Virus record (IMG/VR): IMGVR_UViG_3300030060_007423
Location: 1-64,000 of that record
DNA: 64,000 nt
Origin: a virus
Direction: 5' to 3' (one strand)
Position 1 is the first letter of the stretch; each line of letters opens with the position of its first letter. The notes under the pieces were generated by a model. The model did no database searches, had not been told where the DNA came from, and saw nothing but the letters and a program-made list of their open reading frames with translations. A program made the position numbers and the translations under genes. Shown here piece by piece: positions 52,600 through 63,972 of this stretch.

Positions 52600-54459
52600 A
52601 TGGAAGTATCTAATCAGATTTTATCAAACATAACAGTACATATGAAGTACGCTAAGTTTATTCCAGAACTTGGGAGAAGAGAAACGTGGGAAGAGCTTGT
52701 TACAAGAAACAAAGCCATGCATATTAAAAAATATCCACAATTGAAAGAAGAAATTGAAGAAAAGTACAAGTTTGTGTATGACAAAAAAATACTTCCATCA
52801 ATGCGTAGTTTACAGTTTGGTGGAAAACCAATTGAAATTTCACCAAATAGAATTTACAACTGTGCATATCTGCCTATAGATTCTATTGATGCTTTTAGTG
52901 AAACAATGTTTTTGTTGTTAGGTGGAACAGGTGTTGGTTATTCAGTACAAAAACACCATGTTGAAAAACTACCAATGATACAAAAACCATACCCAAAGAG
53001 AAAGAAAAGATTCTTAATTGGTGATAGTATAGAAGGTTGGGCAGATGCCATTAAAGTTCTTATGAAATCTTATATGAATGGTGGTGGAAGTAGAATAGAG
53101 TTTGACTTTTCAGATATTAGACCTAAAGGTGCAATGCTTGTAACATCAGGTGGTAAAGCTCCAGGACCTCAACCACTTAAAGAGTGTGTATTAAAGGTTA
53201 AGGGTATTTTAGAACAAAAAGAATCTGGTGAAAAATTAACTACAATTGAAGCTCATGATATTGTATGCCATATCGCTGATGCAGTTCTTGCAGGTGGTAT
53301 TCGTAGAGCCGCTCTTATTAGTTTGTTTAGTGCAGACGATGACCAAATGATTGCTTGTAAATCAGGTAACTGGTGGGAGCTAAATCCACAACGTGGTAGA
53401 GCAAATAATTCAGCTTGTTTAATGAGACATAAAATCACAAAAGAGTTTTTTATGGATCTTTGGAAAAGGGTAGAATTATCTGGTGCAGGTGAACCTGGTA
53501 TCTATTTTAATAATGACAAAGACTGGGGAACTAACCCATGTTGCGAAATAGCATTAAGGCCATTTCAGTTTTGTAATTTATGTGAAGTAAATGCTAGTGA
53601 CATAGAAGACCAAGAAGACTTAAATGAAAGAGTTAAAGCAGCTGCATTTATAGGTACACTTCAAGCAGGTTATACATCTTTTCATTATCTTAGAGATATT
53701 TGGAGAGAAACAACAGAAAAAGAAGCACTCATTGGTGTAAGTATGACAGGTATTGGTAGTGGTACTGTTTTAGGATATGATATGAAACAAGCTGCTGACA
53801 AAGTAAAGAGGGAAAATACTCGAGTTGCAAAAATTATTGGTGTAAACAAATCGGCAAGAACAACAACAGTTAAACCTGCAGGAACAACAAGTTTAGTTTT
53901 AGGTACCTCATCTGGAATCCATGCATGGCATAATGATTATTATATCAGAAGAATTAGAGTTGGTAAAAATGAATCAATATATAATTATTTGAAAACAAAC
54001 CACCCAGTTCTAGTTGAAGATGAATATTTTAGACCACATGATACTGCTGTTATTCAAGTACCACAAAAAGCTCCAGAAGGTTCAATACTTAGAACAGAAT
54101 CACCTTTCCAACTATTTGATAGAGTAAAGAGAGTTGCAACTGAATGGGTCAAATCAGGACATCGTAAAGGTTCAAATAGTCACAATGTATCAGCAACAGT
54201 TTCTCTTAAAGAAGAAGATTGGCAGTTGGCTGGCGAGTGGATGTGGGAAAACAGGACTCACTATAATGGTTTATCTGTTTTACCTTATGATGGCGGAACT
54301 TATACTCAAGCACCATTTGAAGATATAGATAAAACAACATATGATGAAATGATGAAGTCTTTAACAGAAGTTGATTTATCAAATGTTGTAGAGCTTGAAG
54401 ATAATACAAATTTATCTGGCGAATTGGCTTGCGCAGGAGGTAGCTGTGAGATTACATAA
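52600..54459 (+). CDS. nrdJ: Class II (B12-dependent) ribonucleotide reductase
   Basis: RETW, YNCA, TNPCCEI, FCNLCE, VKPAGT, C-terminal CAGGSC; no small subunit adjacent. Confidence 0.92.
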   Translation: MEVSNQILSNITVHMKYAKFIPELGRRETWEELVTRNKAMHIKKYPQLKEEIEEKYKFVYDKKILPSMRSLQFGGKPIEISPNRIYNCAYLPIDSIDAFSETMFLLLGGTGVGYSVQKHHVEKLPMIQKPYPKRKKRFLIGDSIEGWADAIKVLMKSYMNGGGSRIEFDFSDIRPKGAMLVTSGGKAPGPQPLKECVLKVKGILEQKESGEKLTTIEAHDIVCHIADAVLAGGIRRAALISLFSADDDQMIACKSGNWWELNPQRGRANNSACLMRHKITKEFFMDLWKRVELSGAGEPGIYFNNDKDWGTNPCCEIALRPFQFCNLCEVNASDIEDQEDLNERVKAAAFIGTLQAGYTSFHYLRDIWRETTEKEALIGVSMTGIGSGTVLGYDMKQAADKVKRENTRVAKIIGVNKSARTTTVKPAGTTSLVLGTSSGIHAWHNDYYIRRIRVGKNESIYNYLKTNHPVLVEDEYFRPHDTAVIQVPQKAPEGSILRTESPFQLFDRVKRVATEWVKSGHRKGSNSHNVSATVSLKEEDWQLAGEWMWENRTHYNGLSVLPYDGGTYTQAPFEDIDKTTYDEMMKSLTEVDLSNVVELEDNTNLSGELACAGGSCEIT

Positions 54460-54637
54460 ACCTGATTGGATAGAAGAGTTATACCTTAAAGAGTATATTA
54501 ACAAACAATCAACCAAAGATTATTATTGGGAAAATGGCAAAATGGTAATGACAGAAAATTACCATGTAAACCGAGGTTACTGTTGTAAAAACGGATGTAA
54601 GCATTGCCCTTATGAAAACAGTAAATCAACAGGCTAA
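54395..54637 (+). CDS. Small Cys-rich protein (DUF5522-like); true start uncertain
   Basis: YYWENGKMVMTE.YH..RGYCC.NGC.HCPY. Confidence 0.65.
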   Translation: MKIIQIYLANWLAQEVAVRLHKPDWIEELYLKEYINKQSTKDYYWENGKMVMTENYHVNRGYCCKNGCKHCPYENSKSTG

Positions 54638-54821
54638 AATTTTACAAGATGAGATTAAAGCCAAAAAGTTAGAATTGTCTAAATTACAAGATGATTGTAA
54701 ACATGAAAAAAAACAAATAAAAATGGATGAAACAAACTCCGCAATGTGGGAATGTGAAAATTGTTCAAGACGACTAAGATACCCTACACCTGCAGAGATG
54801 GATATATGGATTAGCAAGTAA
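54612..54821 (+). CDS. Small putative zinc-binding protein
   Basis: CKH ... CENC. Confidence 0.6.
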   Translation: MKTVNQQAKILQDEIKAKKLELSKLQDDCKHEKKQIKMDETNSAMWECENCSRRLRYPTPAEMDIWISK

Positions 54822-55723
54822 TGAACATATTAAGTAGTTATGTAGGAAATACGCCTTTAGTTCCAATTACTATGGGAGGTTACACAGTCTGGTGTAAATG
54901 TGAATTTATGAATCCCGGTGGTTCTGTTAAAGATAGAATGGCCACCCACATATTAAATAGTGCTGAACACAATAAATTAATCAAAAAAGGTGATACACTA
55001 ATAGAGGCAACTTCAGGAAATACTGGAATTGCTTTTGCTATGTTAGCAGCTGAACGAGGTTATAAAATGAAAATTGTTATGCCGTGCAATATGAGCGAAG
55101 AACGTAAACAAATGTTAAAGTTTTATGGCGCCGAATTAATAGAGGTTGATGCAGGTGATTTTGATGCTGCAATTGATTTAAGAGATACACTTGCAAATGC
55201 TAAGGGATGGTTTAATTGTAATCAGTTTCATAACCCACTAAATATAGAAGCACACTATAAAAATACAGGACCAGAGATAGAAAGACAAGTTAGGTCTCAA
55301 CTTGATAGCTATGATTATGATGGATGGCCTCAAGCATTTGTGGCTGGAACAGGTACTGGTGGAACAATTATGGGTTGTGGAAAATACCTACAAAAACATT
55401 ATCCAGGTATAAGTTTAGTTGCAGTTGAACCAGAAGAAAGTGCCGTCATGTCAGGGATGGAACCAGGCTTACATGGTATACAAGGAATTGGTGATGGTAG
55501 TAAGTTTTTAGTAGACTTAAACAAAATTAGTGATATTATAACTGTACATACAGAATGTGCAAAAAAAGTAGCAAAACATTTGGCATTACGATATGGCTTA
55601 TTTGTTGGAATAAGTGCTGGTGCAAATGTTAAGGCCGCATTTGAATGGTTACGTGACAATGATAAAAAACATGCAATAACTATTCTTTGTGATAGAGGTG
55701 AAAGGTATTTTAGTTGCTTATGA
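54821..55723 (+). CDS. cysK: Cysteine synthase (PLP-dependent, CysK/CysM family)
   Basis: GNTPL, NPGGSVKDR, EATSGNTG, NQF.N, GTGGT, HGIQGIG, DRGERY. Confidence 0.93.
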   Translation: MNILSSYVGNTPLVPITMGGYTVWCKCEFMNPGGSVKDRMATHILNSAEHNKLIKKGDTLIEATSGNTGIAFAMLAAERGYKMKIVMPCNMSEERKQMLKFYGAELIEVDAGDFDAAIDLRDTLANAKGWFNCNQFHNPLNIEAHYKNTGPEIERQVRSQLDSYDYDGWPQAFVAGTGTGGTIMGCGKYLQKHYPGISLVAVEPEESAVMSGMEPGLHGIQGIGDGSKFLVDLNKISDIITVHTECAKKVAKHLALRYGLFVGISAGANVKAAFEWLRDNDKKHAITILCDRGERYFSCL

Positions 55724-56430
55724 ATTATTTATTTGATGTAGATGGTACATTAACCCCAAGTAGGTTAAAAATTGATCCAGAATTTGAGAAATTTTTCTTA
55801 AATTGGATGAAAAACAAAGATGTTTATTTAGTTACAGGTTCAGATAAGGATAAAACAATAGAACAAGTAGGTATAAAAATTTGGACAAATGTTACAAGAG
55901 CATATCAATCATGTGGCAATGCTGTTTATGAAAATGGTATGTTAATTGACCAACGTGATTTTATACTAGAGCCTGAACTCAAAAAGCTATTATTAGAATT
56001 TGTAAAGTGGTCAGATTGTCCAAAACAATTTAGTAATCATATTGAGGAAAGAATTGGATTGGTTAACTTTAGTACTATTGGTAGAACTTGTACTCAAGAC
56101 GCAAGAAATGATTATTATAAATGGGACAATAAGATTAAAGAAAGAGAATCTTTTTGTAAAATAATTGAAGAAAAATTTCCAGAATTAGAAGCAACTGTAG
56201 GTGGAGAAATATCAATAGACATTTATCCTAAAGGGCAAAATAAAGCACAAGTGTTAGATGATATAATTGGACCTGTTACATTTTTTGGTGATAAATGCAA
56301 ACCTGGTGGTAATGACTATCCAATAGTAAATCGCTTAGGCATGCTAAATGAAGAAAATGAACTATCAGTAACTGTTCATGAAGTATCTAATTGGAAAGAT
56401 ACATTAAAAATATTAAATAGTTATAAATGA
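55720..56430 (+). CDS. Phosphomannomutase, HAD-IIB (eukaryote-type PMM)
   Basis: FDVDGTLT, VTGSD, IEER.GLVNFS.IGR, GGEISIDI, FFGDK..PGGNDY. Confidence 0.85.
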   Translation: MNYLFDVDGTLTPSRLKIDPEFEKFFLNWMKNKDVYLVTGSDKDKTIEQVGIKIWTNVTRAYQSCGNAVYENGMLIDQRDFILEPELKKLLLEFVKWSDCPKQFSNHIEERIGLVNFSTIGRTCTQDARNDYYKWDNKIKERESFCKIIEEKFPELEATVGGEISIDIYPKGQNKAQVLDDIIGPVTFFGDKCKPGGNDYPIVNRLGMLNEENELSVTVHEVSNWKDTLKILNSYK

Positions 56431-56624
56431 AAAAAGTAAAAATATCATTCTCAAAACCAGTTAAGTTAAATAGGCATGAACCTGTAACTGAAGTGATAAT
56501 AGATAAAACAGTATCCGAAGGTCACAATTCAATTGAAAGAGACATTCAATATATCCTCTGCAATGCAATGAGTGATATGAGATACAAGGGACTAAAATCA
56601 TTTAATGTAGAAATTATAGAATAA
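56427..56624 (+). CDS. Hypothetical protein
   Basis: 65 aa, overlapping both neighbours. Confidence 0.6.
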   Translation: MKKVKISFSKPVKLNRHEPVTEVIIDKTVSEGHNSIERDIQYILCNAMSDMRYKGLKSFNVEIIE

Positions 56625-57481
56625 TGAAATGTATAGTTGGAAATAATTTAACAGCATTGTTAGCATCTCACATATTTAGTGATTTAGATTTTTATAACCA
56701 TGAAAAACAAATGGTTGAAGAATATACATACATTCCTACAACCGCATCTATTATTGATATATTAGATTGTTTAGGTTTAGACTTTTCAATAAAATCATTT
56801 AAGTGTTGTTTTGATAATCGTGGAAAACTATCTGCAAAATTTGATGAAACATTTGTAAATATTTGGTGTATACATACAAGAGGCAAATCAGTTGTTGAGA
56901 AAAGTTACATTGATAATTTATCACATAAGGTAAGTTACATATCAATAAATGATTTACCACCACTTGAAAGTCTAAATATATTAAAATCAGTTTTACTAGA
57001 AAAATCAAATGCAAAATCAACAATATCAGGCATTGAAGAATTAGAAGATTACAAAAAAGTTTTGTGGTGCCATGATTTGCGATTACTCAATAGTGGCATT
57101 ATAACTGAATATGTTGATAGTTATCAGTATATATGTAAGCATTCAGAAGTAGATGGTATAAACCAAATATTTGATGTTGTATATAGCATAGGAAAACCAT
57201 ATTACAGAAAAATTTACTCAGGAGAAAATGTAATATATAGTGCAATGCGAAAAATATATGACAAAACAGTTGATGATAATACAGTTTTAGAATCATCACC
57301 AACAATACAGATTGTTGACAACCTTAGATTAAATTCATTCAAAAAGTTTGACTTATTAGGTGTATATTCACAATGGGATTTAGGTATGAGTTTAGGAAAG
57401 GTACTTATGCGTTGCAATGAACTTAGAGAATATTACATTGATGATAAAAAAATATCTAAAAATATTTTTATTTCTCAATAA
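56624..57481 (+). CDS. Hypothetical protein, possibly a degenerate flavin-binding fold
   Basis: N-terminal CIVGNNLTALLA and C-terminal LLGVYSQW resemble eroded GxGxxG and GRxxxW motifs. Confidence 0.45.
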   Translation: MKCIVGNNLTALLASHIFSDLDFYNHEKQMVEEYTYIPTTASIIDILDCLGLDFSIKSFKCCFDNRGKLSAKFDETFVNIWCIHTRGKSVVEKSYIDNLSHKVSYISINDLPPLESLNILKSVLLEKSNAKSTISGIEELEDYKKVLWCHDLRLLNSGIITEYVDSYQYICKHSEVDGINQIFDVVYSIGKPYYRKIYSGENVIYSAMRKIYDKTVDDNTVLESSPTIQIVDNLRLNSFKKFDLLGVYSQWDLGMSLGKVLMRCNELREYYIDDKKISKNIFISQ

Positions 57482-57495
57482 TTTTTGTTATATTA
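57463..57495 (+). promoter_or_regulatory. Early-type promoter motif, copy 6
   Basis: TATTTTTATTTCT-CAATAATTTTT-GTTATATTA. Confidence 0.6.
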
Positions 57496-57524
57496 GATAA
57501 AATAAAGAAAACAGGTTATATACT

Positions 57525-58394
57525 ATGAGAAAATATTGGTCAGTACCAAAAACCGAGTCAGGTAGATACAGCGGTTTACATGAAGCTTTTTATTGGGAAT
57601 TACAAAATATTGTGAATCAACGAAACACAGTAAAAAGTCGTGGAACAAATCAAAAAGAAGTATTGTTTAGAAGTTTTATTATTGATGACCCAACAAATCT
57701 AGGAATTTGGTGGCCAAGTAGAAAATTTAATGAAACATATACATTAGCAGAATTTCTTTGGTATTTGTCAAGAAACCCAAATGCAACTAATATTGGTAAA
57801 TTTGCAAGAATTTGGTTAAACATTAAAGACAACGAGGATAATGTAGAATCAAATTATGGCTGTTATGTTTTTGGAAATCAATGGAACTGGTCTGTAAATG
57901 AATTAACAAAAGACAAGGATAGTCGGCGTGCAACATTTGTTATAGGACAACCATATCATAAAACAAAAAATCCAAATGATATACCATGTACACAATACTT
58001 ACAGTTTTTTATAAGAAATAATAAACTTCATATGGGAGTAAGTATGAGAAGTAATGATATTATTTTTGGAATGTCAAATGATATTTTTATATTTTGTTTA
58101 TTTCAACAATTAATGTATAATGAATTAAAACAAGTATACTCAGATTTAGAACTTGGTTCATATTATCACCATGCAGGAAGTTTACACTTGTATGAAATGC
58201 ACAATGAAATGGCAAATAATATTTTAGTTATTGACGGTGAGGATACTGAATATTATGGAAAGCATTATAAATTAAAAGAACATATAACATTAGATTATAT
58301 ACAACAAACTAAAATGTATTTACCAACTAAAGATATGACAAAAGAAGAAATTGGTGAATATGCAAATGATATTAGTAAAAGTTTATTTATATGA
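57525..58394 (+). CDS. Thymidylate-synthase-fold enzyme, dCMP hydroxymethylase-like
   Basis: DSRRA, DIPCT, MRSNDIIFGMSND (Asp at the specificity position), GSLHLY. Confidence 0.8.
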   Translation: MRKYWSVPKTESGRYSGLHEAFYWELQNIVNQRNTVKSRGTNQKEVLFRSFIIDDPTNLGIWWPSRKFNETYTLAEFLWYLSRNPNATNIGKFARIWLNIKDNEDNVESNYGCYVFGNQWNWSVNELTKDKDSRRATFVIGQPYHKTKNPNDIPCTQYLQFFIRNNKLHMGVSMRSNDIIFGMSNDIFIFCLFQQLMYNELKQVYSDLELGSYYHHAGSLHLYEMHNEMANNILVIDGEDTEYYGKHYKLKEHITLDYIQQTKMYLPTKDMTKEEIGEYANDISKSLFI

Positions 58395-58675
58395 AAAAGA
58401 AAGAATCAATATTAAAAAGAGCAGACGGTATAATCAATAACCGTTCAGAAGAAAAAGAAAGAAAATACGGACCATTTAGCGAAGGCATGGAAAGAGCAGC
58501 TAAAATTGCAAGTGGTATGACAGGAAAAGACTTTGTAGCAGAAGATATGTACGCTGCACTAGTTGCACTAAAATTATCAAGACACTCATATAACTATAGG
58601 GAAGATAATCTACTTGATGCTGTTGCGTATTTAGGAGGTTTGGATAACTATATAAAGGAAAATAAAAATGGCTAG
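58391..58675 (+). CDS. DUF6378-like all-alpha protein (putative dNTP pyrophosphatase fold)
   Basis: YG...A...S...LKLSR....DNLLD...Y pattern. Confidence 0.6.
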   Translation: MKKKESILKRADGIINNRSEEKERKYGPFSEGMERAAKIASGMTGKDFVAEDMYAALVALKLSRHSYNYREDNLLDAVAYLGGLDNYIKENKNG

Positions 58676-58853
58676 AAAAATAGTAAGAAAATGGAACCCA
58701 GATTATAAAAAAGCATGGGTAAGGGTAGCTTTACAAAATGCATTAAGTACAATAGATTATGGTGAGCTATCAACCGCAAGTAAAAGACTTATATCTCAAG
58801 TACTAGCAGAATGTGATATAAAGGCAAAGGAAAAAGAGGAGATGGTAAAATGA
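58668..58853 (+). CDS. Hypothetical protein
   Basis: 61 aa; AAGGA upstream; overlaps neighbours. Confidence 0.6.
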   Translation: MARKIVRKWNPDYKKAWVRVALQNALSTIDYGELSTASKRLISQVLAECDIKAKEKEEMVK

Positions 58854-59287
58854 AAATATCAAAAGTAAGAGAAGTAAAAACACCAATAAGAGCAAATAGT
58901 ACAGACGCAGGAATAGATTTTTTTGTACCTGAAGACACAAAGAGATTCACATTATCACCAGGAGATTCTTGTCTTATTCCATCAGGTGTAAAAGTAAATG
59001 TACCTGAAGGGTTTGCTTTAGTAGCATTTAATAAATCAGGAGTTGCAGTTAAAAAATCTTTACATGTTGGGGCATGTGTAGTTGACTGTGGCTATCAAGG
59101 AGAAGTTCACATTAATCTAACAAATGTTGGTGATTGTGAAACTGATATAAATCCCGGTGATAAAATAGTTCAGTTTGTATTATTACCTTTAGGCAATCCT
59201 AAAGTAGAATTGGTAGAAGAAAGCAACTTATATGAATCAGAATCTTCAAGAGGTGAAGGAGGATTTGGAAGTACTGGGACTAAATAA
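58850..59287 (+). CDS. dut: Trimeric dUTPase
   Basis: AGID, KSG, VVDCGYQGE, GDKIVQ, RGEGGFGSTG. Confidence 0.95.
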   Translation: MKISKVREVKTPIRANSTDAGIDFFVPEDTKRFTLSPGDSCLIPSGVKVNVPEGFALVAFNKSGVAVKKSLHVGACVVDCGYQGEVHINLTNVGDCETDINPGDKIVQFVLLPLGNPKVELVEESNLYESESSRGEGGFGSTGTK

Positions 59288-59673
59288 TGAGTGGATTAGA
59301 TAACAGACCAAAGACAATATTTTGTGATATAGATGGTACACTAGTAAAACACATGGCGCCATCAGAGGCAACATCTCCATATAACAAAATGGAAGTAATA
59401 CCTGGAACAATTGAAAAATTATTAGAGTGGGAAAGAAAAGGTTACAATATAATTTTAACAACTGGTAGAAAAGCATGTATGAGAAAACAAACTGAAAATC
59501 AACTTGCTGAGGCTGGGATAGTTTATGACCAATTAGTAATGGGATTTGGTGGTGGTGCAAGATACTTGATAAATGATATGAAAACAGATGGAAGAAATGC
59601 CACTGCATTTGCAATAAACCTTAAAAGAAATACAGAAGGAATAAAGGATATAAATTTAGACCTTCCGTACTAA
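59287..59673 (+). CDS. Small HAD-family phosphatase
   Basis: FCDIDGTL, LTTGR, YDQLVMG, IND. Confidence 0.85.
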   Translation: MSGLDNRPKTIFCDIDGTLVKHMAPSEATSPYNKMEVIPGTIEKLLEWERKGYNIILTTGRKACMRKQTENQLAEAGIVYDQLVMGFGGGARYLINDMKTDGRNATAFAINLKRNTEGIKDINLDLPY

Positions 59674-59684
59674 TTGAGATAGTT

Positions 59685-59906
59685 ATGATAATAAGAACAA
59701 CTAATAAAAATAATAAATACGAGTATTCAAAGTATAAACCAGGCGATGTGTTTGAAGTAATAAATGATTTTGGTGAATACTATACTGCAAGATTTTTGTC
59801 AGGTAGTAAAGCAGATGATATATGTGCAGTTAAAAAAACAGATTGTGTACAGGTGCATTTAGGTAGTTATAAAACTCCAGGCCCAGAAACAATGACAACA
59901 GATTAA
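59685..59906 (+). CDS. Hypothetical small protein
   Basis: 73-aa ORF filling the gap. Confidence 0.55.
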   Translation: MIIRTTNKNNKYEYSKYKPGDVFEVINDFGEYYTARFLSGSKADDICAVKKTDCVQVHLGSYKTPGPETMTTD

Positions 59907-59907
59907 T

Positions 59908-61491
59908 ATGAATAACACAACAGTAATAATACCAGCAGCTGGGTTGGCAACAAGAATGAGGCCACTTTCAAGTAACATGTCAAAGGCAATGATACCTGTT
60001 TGTGGTAAACCTATTATTTCATACATCATAGATGAATTATTAAAATATGATAGTGTAAATGAAATAATCATTGTTGAAAATAAATTGCATGATATTAGTG
60101 AGTTTGTTAAATCTACATATTCATTTGTTGAAAACACATTTAAGTTTGTTGAACAAAAAAACCCTAAAGGGCCACTCCATGCAATTGAAGTAGGTTGGAA
60201 AAAATCAACAAAGAAAGACAACTCTATATTGGTCTGGTTAGGTGATACTATTTGTCGTGATAAATTAAATTTTGATAGTCCAGGATTTTTAGGTGTATCA
60301 AAAATTGAGCAAAAATCAAGATGGTGTTTAGTTGATAGTGACGGTAAAACATTTTATGATAAACCTGATACAGATGTACCAACAGATTCTGCTCTTATTG
60401 GTTTATATTATTTCAATGATAGAAAATGGTTTAATGACTCCATTAAGAAAGGAATGAATAAACCTCAACATAAAGGTGAACATCAAATAGCTGCACTACT
60501 TTCAGAATATCTTACCTATATACCTAAATTTGAGCTATTAGATACTAAAGAATGGTATGATTGTGGTGAATTAAAAACGTATTATGAATCAACAGCCCGT
60601 TTAATGCAAGGTTCATCTAGAGAGTTCAATACACTTGAGATAGATACATTTTTAGGTACAATTACTAAAAAGGCAACTGGCGATAAAGCACTTAAGATTG
60701 AGAAAGAAAAGACTTGGTTTAGTACATTAAGTGATACACAACGGCTATTTGTACCACAAATTTTAGAATCTCAACATGGCGAAATGAAAATGTCATGGGA
60801 AGCAGGTACACCACTAAATGAAGTTTGGTTATATGAAAGAATGAATGCTGATACATGGATAGGTGTTACAAACTCAGTGTTAGATATATACCACAAAGTA
60901 TTCTATAATTCAGGAAAAGAAAGACTTGCAGATTGCTATGAAATGTATATTCAAAAAAATATGGATAGATTAGATAGTGATATGTATAGTGATTTTGTGG
61001 CAAAGGATACTGCAAAAAATTTCATTAAATCTTCAGGCCTTAGATTATTAAAGACAACTAAATGGAGTAATAGAATTCATGGTGATTTACATTTAGGTAA
61101 TATGTTGTTTAATAGTCATAATGGTAGAATTAAGTTACTAGACCCAAGAGGCCATTTTGGAATGTCAGAGTTTTCTGGTGATTCACAATATGATATGGGT
61201 AAATTAATGCATGATTGGTACTGTGGATATATGATGATATTATCTGGAAGATATCACATTGAAGGCTCAGATGTAATACTACATTGGGATGAAGAAAAAA
61301 GAAATAAAATATTAGTTAATATGCTAATTAAAATGAAAGGTTATGGGTATGATGTTGAAAATATTAAGAGACTTTCAATAATGTTATTTTTAACATGTAT
61401 CCCATTTCACCAAGACAATCCAGAAAGATGTAGAGCTTTTTGGTTACGAGCAATGAATTTAATATATAGGGAATTTAGAAATGAAAAATGA
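59908..61491 (+). CDS. Sugar-phosphate nucleotidyltransferase fused to an APH/choline-kinase-like domain
   Basis: IPAAGLATRMRP..SKAM.P, LGD, WYDCG; HGDLHLGN and LLDPRG. Confidence 0.88.
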   Translation: MNNTTVIIPAAGLATRMRPLSSNMSKAMIPVCGKPIISYIIDELLKYDSVNEIIIVENKLHDISEFVKSTYSFVENTFKFVEQKNPKGPLHAIEVGWKKSTKKDNSILVWLGDTICRDKLNFDSPGFLGVSKIEQKSRWCLVDSDGKTFYDKPDTDVPTDSALIGLYYFNDRKWFNDSIKKGMNKPQHKGEHQIAALLSEYLTYIPKFELLDTKEWYDCGELKTYYESTARLMQGSSREFNTLEIDTFLGTITKKATGDKALKIEKEKTWFSTLSDTQRLFVPQILESQHGEMKMSWEAGTPLNEVWLYERMNADTWIGVTNSVLDIYHKVFYNSGKERLADCYEMYIQKNMDRLDSDMYSDFVAKDTAKNFIKSSGLRLLKTTKWSNRIHGDLHLGNMLFNSHNGRIKLLDPRGHFGMSEFSGDSQYDMGKLMHDWYCGYMMILSGRYHIEGSDVILHWDEEKRNKILVNMLIKMKGYGYDVENIKRLSIMLFLTCIPFHQDNPERCRAFWLRAMNLIYREFRNEK

Positions 61492-62752
61492 AAACATTAA
61501 AGTAGCTATCTTTGTTTTAGGTGGTGCAATTAAATTTGTAAAGAAGAATCTTAAACGTGCTGATGGAACTAATGAGTATTATAAACTTATAAAGTCACTC
61601 TGTGCTAATCCAAAAATTGGTGAAGTACTAATTATTCAAAAAAGTGATTGGGGAAAACTTGACGATGAGTTAAAACAAGAATATGACCCACGTGGAGTTT
61701 TAAGATATATCTATGATGAATTAGACCCAAAGGATATTAGACCTGATAAGGGTGAAGATATGCAATTGACATTAAACTATCAAAAGCTTGATGAATATCT
61801 AAATCACGATGAAACAAAACCAGATTTTGGTTTAGGATTTATTGGACCTGGTTATATGACAAATAATGTTATACCAAATTTTTTAGATGGTGTTCGTGAT
61901 CCTAGTTCAAAAGTAAAACTTTTAGGTATGACATATAATTATTCTTCACCAATTGTACACTACTTAAATAAATCAGACCTTCCTTGGTTTATGATATGTA
62001 CAGATCCAAGATATACAAAGCCAACATTCAAAGCAAAGGATACTGTAAACTATCCAAAAGAAATAATTGCACAATACAACACAACAAGTATTTGGCACAG
62101 CTTAAAGGAATATAGAAACGATGCTGAATTTGAAGATAAGACATTAAATGTAAGATATAGTGGAATAGAAAAACTTAATCTTGTAGATGAAGAAATTATC
62201 AACCCAGATAATAGCAGACCTAATAAATTTACAATAGTTGCAATGCAAAGTGTAACAGGTCAAGCAACAAAGGACAAAAGGTTTGATGCAATTAAGGAAT
62301 GGATTCTTGACCGTGATACAAACCAAGAGGTTGAAATATATGGAAAATGGAAGGAACACTTTACAGATGGTTACCCACAATTTAAGGGATATGTTACACC
62401 AGCTGAAATAGACCAAAAGTTTAAGGAAACTAGGTATACATTAGTTGTACCAATTGGACCTGATTGGGTAACAAGCAAATATGCTGAGGTACTCTTAATG
62501 GGTGTTGTACCTTTTTTCCATCCAACATACGATACACAAGGAAATGTTTTACCACTTAATCACTTTTGTAGGGTTTCAAGTCCACAAGAATTTTATGATA
62601 AAATGAAATTCTTAGATGATGTCCCAGAAAAGAGAATACAATTGGTTAAATTATTACAGGACAATTTAATAAAAAATGTTACAGATGGATCATTTGTATA
62701 TGACATTGTAAATAAATCATTAGAAAACACAAATATAGGAGTTAGAATATGA
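61481..62752 (+). CDS. DNA glycosyltransferase, T4 beta-glucosyltransferase-like (GT-B)
   Basis: KVAIF.LG, TNE, TDPR, IEK, FKG, WVTSKYAE, YDT align in order with T4 BGT features as recalled. Confidence 0.75.
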   Translation: MKNENIKVAIFVLGGAIKFVKKNLKRADGTNEYYKLIKSLCANPKIGEVLIIQKSDWGKLDDELKQEYDPRGVLRYIYDELDPKDIRPDKGEDMQLTLNYQKLDEYLNHDETKPDFGLGFIGPGYMTNNVIPNFLDGVRDPSSKVKLLGMTYNYSSPIVHYLNKSDLPWFMICTDPRYTKPTFKAKDTVNYPKEIIAQYNTTSIWHSLKEYRNDAEFEDKTLNVRYSGIEKLNLVDEEIINPDNSRPNKFTIVAMQSVTGQATKDKRFDAIKEWILDRDTNQEVEIYGKWKEHFTDGYPQFKGYVTPAEIDQKFKETRYTLVVPIGPDWVTSKYAEVLLMGVVPFFHPTYDTQGNVLPLNHFCRVSSPQEFYDKMKFLDDVPEKRIQLVKLLQDNLIKNVTDGSFVYDIVNKSLENTNIGVRI

Positions 62753-63972
62753 GCGAAATAAAATGGGCAACTATTATCCCACTTATAGGTGGTAGTGCAA
62801 TAGGTTGCAATATGACAACAAAAAATCAACCAGTAGGACACTTAACATATAATGCTTTTGCAGCAAATGAATCACATATTAGAAGACATTGGCCAGATGT
62901 ACCATATCATTCTTTAGATGAGGGAACTATTCCTAATTTAGGTTCTCTTGATTTTGTAAATAGTGTATGCCCATGTGCTGGGTTATCGATGTTAAATTCA
63001 TCTGCTATTGAAGGTAGTATTAATAAGAGAGGTAGTGATGCTGCACAGAATGAATGGATGTATAAATCAACTAGAGTTGTATTGGAAAATTATAAACCTA
63101 AAGTATTATGGGGTGAAAATGCACCGGGACTATTTACCAAGCTTGGTGAAGGCGTAGTTGAAAAATTAAAAGCTATTGGAAAGGAATATGATTATAGTTT
63201 TTCAATGATTAAAACAAATACAGAATTACATGGTATACCACAAAGAAGAATTAGAACATTTTACTTTTTTTGGAAAGGTACTAAGCCACCTATATTTGAT
63301 TGGTATAAAAAAGACTGTAAAACATTAGCAGATTATTTAGCAGAAGTACCAGCTGATGCAAGTTGTCAAGATATGTTTATGGTACCAGGAACTGTAACTG
63401 ACCACTTTAAGCCATATCAGTTTATTCTTGAAAGAGAGGGTAAAACACATCAGGAATTTGTTGAATGGTGGAATCATGGAACGTTATATCAATACCTTGA
63501 AAAATATGAACTTGTACATGACTGTATTGATTGGTTAAAGAAATACCACCCAGAAGCAGGCTTTAGTAAAAAGAATGGTACAAATACATTTATCAGTATG
63601 TTAGAACATGTACTTAAAAAGAGGTCAATGGGATTAGGATATTGGGATAGTTCACCTCATATTTTTAGTAAATCATTTAATGCATTGATTGGTAGAAACA
63701 TGTTTAATGGTGTACACCCAACTGAAAATAGGTACTTAAATGTTAGAGAATTTTTACACTTAATGGGATTACCTCACGACTTTGCAATTGAAGATGTAAA
63801 GCAAGTAAATCATATTGCACAAAATGTACCAACATGTACTGCAAGAGATATGACTGAACAAGTTGTAAAATATATCAATGGTGAATTACAAACAGCAGAT
63901 GGCTATTTTGTAAAGCAAGACAATACGAATAGAAAAATTACACAAGAATCTTTACAAACGCAATTGTTTTAA
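62749..63972 (+). CDS. C5 cytosine DNA methyltransferase-like protein with atypical SAM-binding motifs
   Basis: PCAGLS (IV), ENAPGL (VI), PQRRIRTF (VIII), LNVREFLHLMG (IX); motif I reads IPLIGG, motif X IAQNVP. Confidence 0.85.
   Translation: MSEIKWATIIPLIGGSAIGCNMTTKNQPVGHLTYNAFAANESHIRRHWPDVPYHSLDEGTIPNLGSLDFVNSVCPCAGLSMLNSSAIEGSINKRGSDAAQNEWMYKSTRVVLENYKPKVLWGENAPGLFTKLGEGVVEKLKAIGKEYDYSFSMIKTNTELHGIPQRRIRTFYFFWKGTKPPIFDWYKKDCKTLADYLAEVPADASCQDMFMVPGTVTDHFKPYQFILEREGKTHQEFVEWWNHGTLYQYLEKYELVHDCIDWLKKYHPEAGFSKKNGTNTFISMLEHVLKKRSMGLGYWDSSPHIFSKSFNALIGRNMFNGVHPTENRYLNVREFLHLMGLPHDFAIEDVKQVNHIAQNVPTCTARDMTEQVVKYINGELQTADGYFVKQDNTNRKITQESLQTQLF

Follow-up and report, generated by a model that had tools for sequence, protein, structure and literature searches.

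Gene content and conservation of the locus

The window considered here is a stretch of 64 000 nt, the first 64 kb of a 170.8-kb virus record in IMG/VR (IMGVR_UViG_3300030060_007423; CheckV completeness estimate 80%), with GC content of ∼33%. Between 54.8 and 64.0 kb it carries a gap-free run of genes on the + strand, whose starts and stops overlap or sit a few bases apart (Table 1); no terminator-like sites were found on this strand between 54000 and 64000. An original prediction had read the run as a cytosine hypermodification system with its own sugar-donor pathway and had named nine genes: a phosphomannomutase (PMM), a possible flavoprotein relic, a thymidylate synthase (TS)-fold enzyme, a DUF6378-like protein, a dUTPase, a HAD phosphatase, a nucleotidyltransferase–kinase fusion (NTase-kinase), a BGT-like glycosyltransferase (GT) and a C5-methyltransferase (MTase)-fold protein. 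All nine were recovered, co-directional and tightly packed, each with a significant family or fold match. With moderate confidence we characterize the block 57525–63972 as a cytosine hypermodification module, in which the base would be 5-hydroxymethylcytosine (hmC), the nucleoside diphosphate (NDP)-sugar would be made by the phage and transferred by a BGT-like enzyme, and a C5-MTase is linked to the transferase. The core of the earlier proposal, a TS-fold step at the nucleotide level, NDP-sugar synthesis by the phage itself, a BGT-fold GT and a linked MTase-fold enzyme, is supported.

Table 1. Genes of the + strand run, with the family or fold evidence for each (ORF, open reading frame)
Feature	Coordinates	Strand	Evidence and remarks
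Phosphomannomutase, eukaryotic-type (HAD-IIB, DVDGT)	55714..56430	+	PF03332 E 7e-29
65-aa ORF	56427..56624	+	no Pfam/PHROG match; 65% identical copy in L009
Flavoprotein-fold protein, 285 aa	56624..57481	+	no family match; predicted fold UDP-galactopyranose mutase / protoporphyrinogen oxidase-like
TS homologue, most likely gp42-type dCMP hydroxymethylase	57525..58394	+	PF00303 E 1.7e-14, 54 bits
DUF6378 protein	58391..58675	+	PF19905 36.9 bits, cut-off 27.1; start overlaps hydroxymethylase stop
61-aa ORF	58668..58853	+	below all family cut-offs; 75% identical copy in L009
dUTPase, trimeric-type	58850..59287	+	PF00692 E 1.7e-19; TIGR00576 102.9 bits, cut-off 102.55
Small HAD phosphatase, 128 aa, AfhF-type homologue	59287..59673	+	DIDGT motif; hhalign
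73-aa ORF	59685..59906	+	below all family cut-offs; 62% identical copy in L009
NTP_transferase (N-terminal) and APH-like sugar kinase (C-terminal) fusion, 527 aa, AfhE homologue	59908..61491	+	PF00483 E 1e-20
GT-B DNA glycosyltransferase candidate, BGT-like	61481..62752	+	AF2 model, Foldseek, VIA
Divergent DNA cytosine-5 methyltransferase (predicted)	62749..63972	+	PF00145 54 bits, cut-off 22; start overlaps GT stop by 4 bases (ATGA)

A megablast search with this region as the query, over 50,697 phage records, gave no match. The gene order recurs in other phages, as the original prediction had proposed to check. The TS-dUTPase-HAD-NTase/kinase-GT order is found in Enterococcus phage 9183, where dUTPase directly follows the TS homologue, whereas two small genes intervene in the window; in this phage and in Enterococcus phages Planchet and TJE4 the genes Tmk, TS, dUTPase, HAD, NTase-kinase and GT stand in the same order as in the window, with the MTase absent. 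Pseudoalteromonas phage XG4 (PP712099) has the order TS-HAD-NTase/kinase-GT-x-MTase, with a gp42-like gene, HAD, NTase-kinase, GT, a 368-aa protein, MTase and a gp56-like dCTPase in one run; it has no PMM and no adjacent dUTPase, and a copy of the relic was not found in the 12-kb stretch examined. The XG4 run (L004, 100–7552) comes from a GenBank entry of a cultured phage that has no annotation and bears the label ‘UNVERIFIED_ORG’.

Locus counts refer to a set of 80 viral contigs fetched through GT homologues, in which the nearest relative of the window phage is L009 (a 105-kb record, with a GT 93% identical to that of the window). In 78 of the 80 loci an MTase homologue lies downstream of the GT homologue on the same strand; for 62 of these, the gap between the two matches is no more than 105 nt. 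Clustering of the linked MTases gives 27 groups at 90% identity and 18 at 70%, so that the linkage does not come from one recent clade, though kinship among loci still inflates the count of 78. As the order recurs in phages 9183 and XG4, and the GT-MTase pair in 78 of 80 contigs, we do not ascribe the arrangement of the cluster to chance.

The TS homologue and the probable modified base

The TS homologue is most likely a dCMP hydroxymethylase of the T4 gp42 type, with 5-hydroxymethyl-dCMP as the product predicted from its sequence. In searches against PDB it matched MilA, a CMP hydroxymethylase (3e-20), and T4 gp42 (1e-18); E. coli-type ThyA came at ∼1e-6, and chains 9iqu and 9iqc (234/238 aa, deposited only as ‘thymidylate synthase’) at 8e-5. 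We presume these two chains to be the 5-hydroxy enzyme of HY126.

The residues that diagnose function agree with this assignment. In alignment A1 the catalytic cysteine (C155, gp42 C148) and E76 (gp42 E60, the equivalent of the Glu60 that hydrates the methylene intermediate) are invariant. An acidic residue, D152 (NDIPCT), occupies the position of ThyA-L143, as D145 does in gp42 (SDFMCT), and D186 (GMSND) aligns with gp42 D179 (GFRND), where Asp replaces Asn of ThyA-N177 and confers cytosine specificity; the ‘dCMP-type Asp’ that had been ascribed to this enzyme is thus in place. A motif scan was made of 43 TS homologues (37 from GT loci, plus 9183, T2 and RsoM2USA); all 43 have an acidic residue ahead of the cysteine, in the pattern D-F/I/V-x-C-T.

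The original prediction had left the base as ‘hmC or hC’. In RB69-type phages a flavin-using TS homologue makes 5-hydroxy-dCMP (Lee et al., NAR 2026, PMC13326640), and Asn at the position of ThyA-D169 is the mark of every 5-hydroxylase tested there. The enzyme of Mosigvirus Bas46, from this proven 5-hydroxy lineage, reads MRSQN, with Asn at this position. The window enzyme reads MRSND, as does T2 gp42, its D178 being the equivalent of ThyA-D169, and so it lacks the D169N signature of the 5-hydroxy-dCMP synthases of RB69 gp48 / DLP3 gp80 type; Asp was found at this site in 43/43 of the scanned homologues (42 MRSND, 1 MRSQD). Since Asp is kept at ThyA-D169, a hydroxymethyl rather than a hydroxyl group is predicted, and from these residues we favour hmC over hC with good confidence: the first half of the earlier alternative stands and the second is disfavoured.

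One could still propose a flavin-dependent 5-hydroxy-dCMP synthase in the TS homologue and, in the DNA, arabinosyl-5-hydroxycytosine made through AfhE and AfhF as in RB69. The NTase-kinase and HAD genes are indeed AfhE/AfhF homologues, a flavoprotein-fold gene adjoins the TS homologue, and diverse metaviromic TS homologues have been reported to make 5-hydroxydeoxycytidine (PMC13326640). We consider this quite improbable, given the missing Asn in the window enzyme and in every scanned homologue. The flavoprotein-fold protein is without a flavin adenine dinucleotide (FAD) motif, a search for an arabinose-5-phosphate isomerase (SIS domain), with a control positive in 14/14 genomes, gave no match in the genome of the window phage or in those of five relatives, and the GT is BGT-like rather than GT4-type, with no tblastn match in the Bas46 cluster. 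Also, gp42 and MilA match the window enzyme ∼13–15 orders of magnitude better than 9iqu and 9iqc do, a comparison that bears on this question under our presumption about the two chains.

Within the preferred hydroxymethyl reading, the group is expected to be added to the nucleotide. Gp42-type hydroxymethylases accompany the GT-MTase pair at all loci with enough flank. A search for Tet/JBP oxygenases (PF12851), run without a positive control, gave no match in the window phage or in the five relatives, of whose genomes three are at least 91% complete; this negative favours the TS homologue as the enzyme that supplies the hydroxymethyl group. A dCTPase like the T4-type gp56 is encoded by XG4 and by one metagenomic relative (G005), at 40–48% identity.

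The glycosyltransferase

The GT was modelled with AF2 from a 30-sequence alignment (pLDDT 88.9). T4 BGT was the top match of the model both in Foldseek (E 3e-9, TM 0.47–0.63) and in VIA (Z 21.4 over 313 residues, rmsd 4.5, 16% identity); in VIA the next unrelated GT-B enzyme followed at 19.4, T4 AGT at 18.2 and the HY126 GT at 16.2. By sequence there was no match to the BGT Pfam family PF09198, and the sole Pfam match, PF13524, reached 23.8 bits, below the cut-off of 25. The modelled protein is BGT-like in fold, as had been proposed, and not a member of the BGT family by sequence. D175 and E32 are invariant across its own family. This family comprises at least 278 protein clusters, nearly all of which came unnamed from their source and many of which lie on contigs of 100–425 kb; tblastn detected 229 viral-contig stretches with a GT relative.

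Proposed synthesis of the sugar donor

The NTase-kinase aligns end to end (residues 6–525, 24% identity, E 4e-19) with the ‘UDP-arabinose biosynthesis’ enzyme of Bas46, the alignment spanning kinase motifs IHGDxxxxN and DPRG. The Bas46 enzyme is a homologue of HY126 AfhE, an arabinose-5-phosphate 1-kinase and UDP-arabinose pyrophosphorylase. The window protein has the architecture of AfhE, an N-terminal NTP_transferase domain fused to an APH-like kinase, with homology over the full length. For the HAD protein the relation is visible at profile level only: pairwise BLAST with the Bas46 phosphatase gave nothing, and the five-member family profile A5 matched it in hhalign with probability of 98.6% (E 1e-15, 106 columns). 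From this profile match the HAD protein is a homologue of AfhF-type sugar-bisphosphate phosphatases.

The homology to AfhE and AfhF indicates a conserved kinase–phosphatase–nucleotidyltransferase logic, in which a sugar phosphate is converted to a sugar-1,x-bisphosphate, then to a sugar-1-phosphate and then to an NDP-sugar, and the earlier analogy to RB69-type phages was apt in this respect. As no isomerase of phage origin was matched, the input would be either arabinose-5-phosphate supplied by the host or a different pentose or hexose phosphate. It is plausible that the attached sugar is other than glucose.

The donor-synthesis genes vary among GT-MTase loci. In one lineage (L073, 9515–12441, and relatives L069–L087) a TagD-like cytidylyltransferase (PF01467) replaces the NTase-kinase fusion before the same GT-methylase pair, and two proteins of ∼316–348 aa accompany it in the place of the fusion. 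This swap implies that the donor varies between lineages and suggests a different one in L073, e.g. a CDP-linked donor. Separately, a 681-aa protein from a Logan contig (P0011) combines a relative of the GT (48% identity) with a choline-kinase-type domain (PF01633), so that a kinase and the transferase are linked in one polypeptide.

The block could also be a collage with no DNA glycosylation at all, made up of genes for nucleotide metabolism, an orphan methylase acting against restriction, and envelope-glycan genes (PMM, NTase-kinase and GT). PMM and cysK are typical auxiliary genes, a separate cluster of glycan type lies 7–15 kb downstream (two GT4, one GT2, a sulfotransferase and an APS kinase), and palindromes containing C are avoided, as described below. 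We assign a low probability to this explanation: the closest solved structures of the GT are T4 DNA glucosyltransferases, homologues of AfhE and AfhF are known only from DNA modification, and the NTase-kinase, HAD and GT genes are found together with a cytosine-specific TS homologue both in phages of Gram-positive hosts and in phages of Gram-negative hosts.

The linked methyltransferase

In profile alignments the MTase family matches M.HaeIII (E 4.5e-12), and also DNMT1 and M.HhaI, motif by motif; the score against TIGR00675 was 34 bits, with a cut-off of 100. Motifs I (LIGG), IV (PCAxLS), VI (ENAP), VIII (HGxPQxRxR), IX (RE..G.P.DF) and X (QNVP) are invariant or nearly so in alignment A4 (20 sequences), and across 49 sequences conservation at these positions is at least 98%. 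The region between motifs VIII and IX, where target recognition resides, is variable, as in sequence-specific MTases. Given the conserved motifs and the variable target region, the protein looks like an active sequence-specific DNA C5-methylase, as a prediction.

Two motifs deviate from the usual form: motif IV reads PCA instead of PCQ, and motif X reads QNVP instead of GNxVP, i.e. Gln is changed to Ala and Asn to Gln. In M.HhaI the corresponding residues, Q82 and N304, line the cofactor pocket, and their mutation changes the group transferred (PMC3526304). Judging by the sequences, the two changes may be a compensating swap or may mark an altered pocket.

The original prediction had added ‘an extra MTase-fold step’. 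The conserved gene linkage bears out the presence of such an enzyme beside the GT. A prediction of the GT-MTase complex (alignments A2 and A4) scored 0.00 and, as it was run without controls, is uninformative on binding.

The adjacency of the pair in 78/80 loci is similar to the gene logic of the phage clusters with C5-MTase, TET and GT genes (Burke et al. 2021, PMC8256090), in which a DNA C5-MTase and a DNA GT also stand side by side. By analogy, the MTase could write 5-methylcytosine, which an oxidase would convert to hmC in DNA for glycosylation by the GT, with the TS homologue serving otherwise. This post-replicative route is, in our estimate, very unlikely: the window phage differs from those clusters in having a nucleotide-level hydroxymethylase and no match to TET/JBP, within the scope and the limit of the search given above, and the gp42-type enzyme goes with the GT-MTase pair wherever the flank suffices. 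The gp56-type dCTPase in the XG4 cluster makes sense only for pre-replicative replacement. With a nucleotide-level hydroxymethylase present, the methylase is not needed for making the hydroxymethyl handle and, with no Tet/JBP match in that search, the C5-MTase/TET/GT logic probably does not explain the pairing.

We considered CpG depletion as a footprint of CpG methylation and rejected it. The observed/expected ratio of CpG is 0.38 in the whole 170.8-kb genome (G000), with 1.28 for TpG/CpA; the depletion is common to the nearest relative and not to other methylase-bearing loci. Across the MTase-bearing loci the CpG ratio ranges from 0.28 to 1.5. This spread indicates that CpG depletion follows lineage or host.

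Some proteins of the cluster have distinct C-terminal tails. The window MTase ends in ...QTQLF, its nearer relatives in ...K-x-K-x-LF and many distant relatives in ...TLEEFFA or NLxEFFG. Relatives of the GT end in ...LF in 22/30 cases, mostly ...SLF, whereas the window GT does not. The window TS homologue ends in ...SKSLFI and the relic in ...KNIFISQ, while TS homologues of nearer relatives (L010–L024) have a conserved end, ...YF(Y/F/W)IQ. We take these tails to resemble sliding-clamp-binding peptides, i.e. the bacterial QLxLF motif and the C-terminus of RB69 polymerase. Genome-wide, 6 of 212 + strand ORFs have such tails, three of the six in the cluster; the family-B polymerase of the phage is without one.

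Proposed pathway and the evidence against it

From homology and diagnostic residues, the gp42-type enzyme would convert dCMP to 5-hydroxymethyl-dCMP, with the neighbouring dUTPase managing the pyrimidine pool. The product would be phosphorylated by some kinase and incorporated as hm-dCTP at replication. In parallel, the C-terminal kinase domain of the fusion would phosphorylate a sugar phosphate at C1, as suggested by homology to AfhE, the small HAD protein would strip the distal phosphate, as AfhF homology suggests, and the N-terminal nucleotidyltransferase would make the NDP-sugar, for which arabinose is a precedent. Judging by fold and context, the BGT-like GT-B enzyme would then put this sugar on the hydroxymethyl group in DNA. 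The C5-MTase would act on DNA alongside the GT, in S-adenosylmethionine (SAM)-dependent methylation of unreplaced cytosines at sites set by its variable target-recognition region.

Several considerations weigh against this pathway. The base, the sugar and the extent of replacement are all inferred from genes. The D169 rule stems from the tested set of one paper, and identity to AfhE is only 24%, which makes it unsafe to transfer the substrate from AfhE. Neither a dNMP/thymidylate kinase nor a gp56-type dCTPase was found in the 170.8 kb, an estimated 80% of the genome, while relatives carry them. Palindromes containing C are avoided in the whole genome (observed/expected 0.17 for GATC and 0.08 for CCATGG; 0 CGCG sites against 17 expected), which would be unexpected if a bulky adduct shielded every C. 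The C-free palindrome TTTAAA is likewise avoided (0 sites against 152 expected), as is GATATC, with one C per strand (0.17).

The remaining objections concern the MTase. In hmC the C5 position is already substituted, so fully hmC-containing DNA offers a C5-methylase no obvious substrate; XG4 encodes a dCTPase together with the MTase, though the dCTPase should leave little cytosine; and the same MTase family is found alone in cyanophage S-TIM5. The coexistence of the two enzymes in XG4 makes a role of the MTase on residual cytosine weak, and our proposal that it methylates cytosines that have escaped replacement is weakly held.

One could speculate that the enzyme has a function other than methylation. 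Tethered to the clamp, and with its covalent Cys–C6 chemistry acting on nascent DNA, it might convert residual C to a 5-substituted form, or activate hmC or glycosyl-hmC for substitution. The MTase stays next to the GT even in phages whose dCTPase should have removed all cytosine, the PCA and QNVP motifs alter those pocket positions that govern the group transferred, and tails like clamp motifs occur on the MTase and on GT relatives. However, the SAM-binding and catalytic motifs all fit an ordinary C5-MTase, the Gln-to-Ala and Asn-to-Gln changes may merely compensate each other, and the family occurs on its own in S-TIM5; we regard this idea as unlikely. If it were true, virion DNA would contain one or a pair of undescribed cytosine derivatives.

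Comparison with known systems and significance

The T-even system for glucosyl-hmC (T4 gp42, gp56, gp1 and α/β-GTs) shares with the module a gp42-type hydroxymethylase with the same catalytic and specificity residues and a GT-B DNA glycosyltransferase, T4 BGT being the nearest solved fold of the window GT, as well as the logic of pre-replicative base replacement followed by post-replicative glycosylation. The gp56-type dCTPase of T4 is also present in relatives XG4 and G005. On the other hand, T4 takes UDP-glucose from the host, whereas the window phage encodes NDP-sugar synthesis; the window GT, ∼16% identical to T4 BGT, is outside the BGT Pfam family; and homologues of T4 gp56 and gp1 were not found in the 170.8 kb of the window phage. 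The window phage has a C5-methylase linked to the GT, while the T2 stretches compared show only the Dam adenine methylase, and T4 is not known to have a C5-methylase.

The arabinosyl-5-hydroxycytosine system of RB69, DLP3, HY126 and Bas46 (PMC13326640) comprises a 5-hydroxy-dCMP synthase, AfhE, AfhF, an arabinose-5-phosphate isomerase and GT4-type arabinosyltransferases. Common to it and the module are an AfhE-like fusion and an AfhF-like HAD protein clustered with a cytosine-specific TS homologue and with one or more DNA glycosyltransferases. It differs from the module in the residue at ThyA-D169 (Asp in the window TS), in the isomerase, unmatched in the window phage, and in the type of GT; no C5-methylase was found in the clusters of this type that we compared.

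The module thus joins parts of both known cytosine glycosylation systems, a T4-type base with RB69-type donor synthesis, and adds a C5-methylase that belongs to neither. The original prediction had not recognized the combination as a described pathway. For the donor route this has been overtaken, as the route was published in 2025–26 for arabinosyl-5-hydroxycytosine (PMC13326640); for the whole it holds, as we found no paper describing a T4-type base, a BGT-type GT, an RB69-type donor and a C5-methylase together. Likewise, no report was found on the DNA chemistry of XG4 or of Enterococcus phages 9183, Planchet and TJE4.

Hypermodification of its DNA determines if a phage is open to attack by restriction enzymes, CRISPR nucleases and modification-dependent defences, and such systems have given tools, e.g. 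T4 BGT for the mapping of hmC. By the counts of tblastn stretches (229) and of GT clusters (at least 278), the module is common in uncultured phages. As the GT-methylase pair is kept and the donor genes change from lineage to lineage, hmC is predicted to bear a range of adducts, sugars or groups resembling them. Once understood, the role of a C5-methylase in hmC-containing DNA could bring to light a mixed masking of cytosine or new chemistry at C5. The cultured carrier, vB_Psh_XG4, makes the module directly testable and is the best experimental handle for the system.

Accessory genes and neighbouring clusters

PMM, the relic, the DUF6378 protein and the three small ORFs are lineage-specific accessories. 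The original prediction had counted PMM as a part of the pathway, which it probably is not: PMM is absent from the syntenic site in the nearest relative, from the whole 105-kb record of that relative and from XG4, and its homologues occur in cyanomyophages S-SSM7 and P-TIM68, not linked to the module in the searches made. Given this absence and these cyanophage homologues, PMM is unsupported as the source of the DNA sugar; it is probably an auxiliary metabolic gene outside the DNA-modification pathway.

The suggestion of a ‘possible flavoprotein relic’ proved well founded, the fold match being good and the dinucleotide-binding motif lost. The AF2 model (pLDDT 87.8) matched in VIA UDP-galactopyranose mutases (Z 17.2–15) and, by a small margin lower, protoporphyrinogen oxidases (Z 14.9). 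In alignment A3 the protein reads VGNNLTA (or IGSNNYA in its clade) where distant homologues keep GxGxAG. As a UDP-galactopyranose mutase it would lack the FAD motif GxGxxG and be too short, with 285 aa against at least ∼365 aa for the three-domain form. The family has only ∼20 representative relatives, and among the 80 loci the relic was present only in L009, which marks it as a lineage-specific accessory.

A homologue of the relic with intact GxGxxG occurs in an ENA metagenome contig (L092, 4778–8699), after DnaB and ribonucleotide reductase genes; downstream of it are a dUTPase_2/NT5C fusion, a thymidylate-kinase-like gene, UDG and an NDP-sugar epimerase, and there is no TS-family match among the listed genes of this contig. 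This gene set may represent a separate flavin-based pathway of nucleotide modification.

The DUF6378 protein was considered as a MazG- or gp56-type dCTPase and this was rejected, as it had no PDB sequence match at E 10 and no similarity to T2 gp56; no MazG-family match was found in the genome.

Upstream of the block, a cysteine synthase-like pyridoxal phosphate enzyme (54821–55723, + strand; TIGR01136 304 bits, just below the cut-off) overlaps the start of PMM. The gene, present in L009 too, probably serves sulfur/cysteine metabolism in an auxiliary role and does not belong to the DNA pathway. A DUF5522 protein lies at 54395–54637, and the window also encodes a DnaB-like helicase, ribonucleotide reductase, a family-B DNA polymerase and GroES/GroEL.

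The second carbohydrate cluster, the glycan-type one mentioned above, lies beyond the window at G000 71128–79016 (L002 9128–17016). It encodes an APS-kinase domain fused to a HAD domain (45% identical to the HAD protein of the module), a weak cytidylyltransferase-like ORF, a SLOG protein, two GT4 enzymes (one matching ‘GT4 in conflict systems’), one GT2 and a sulfotransferase. The products of this cluster could act on the host envelope or, alternatively, lengthen or sulfate a DNA-bound glycan.

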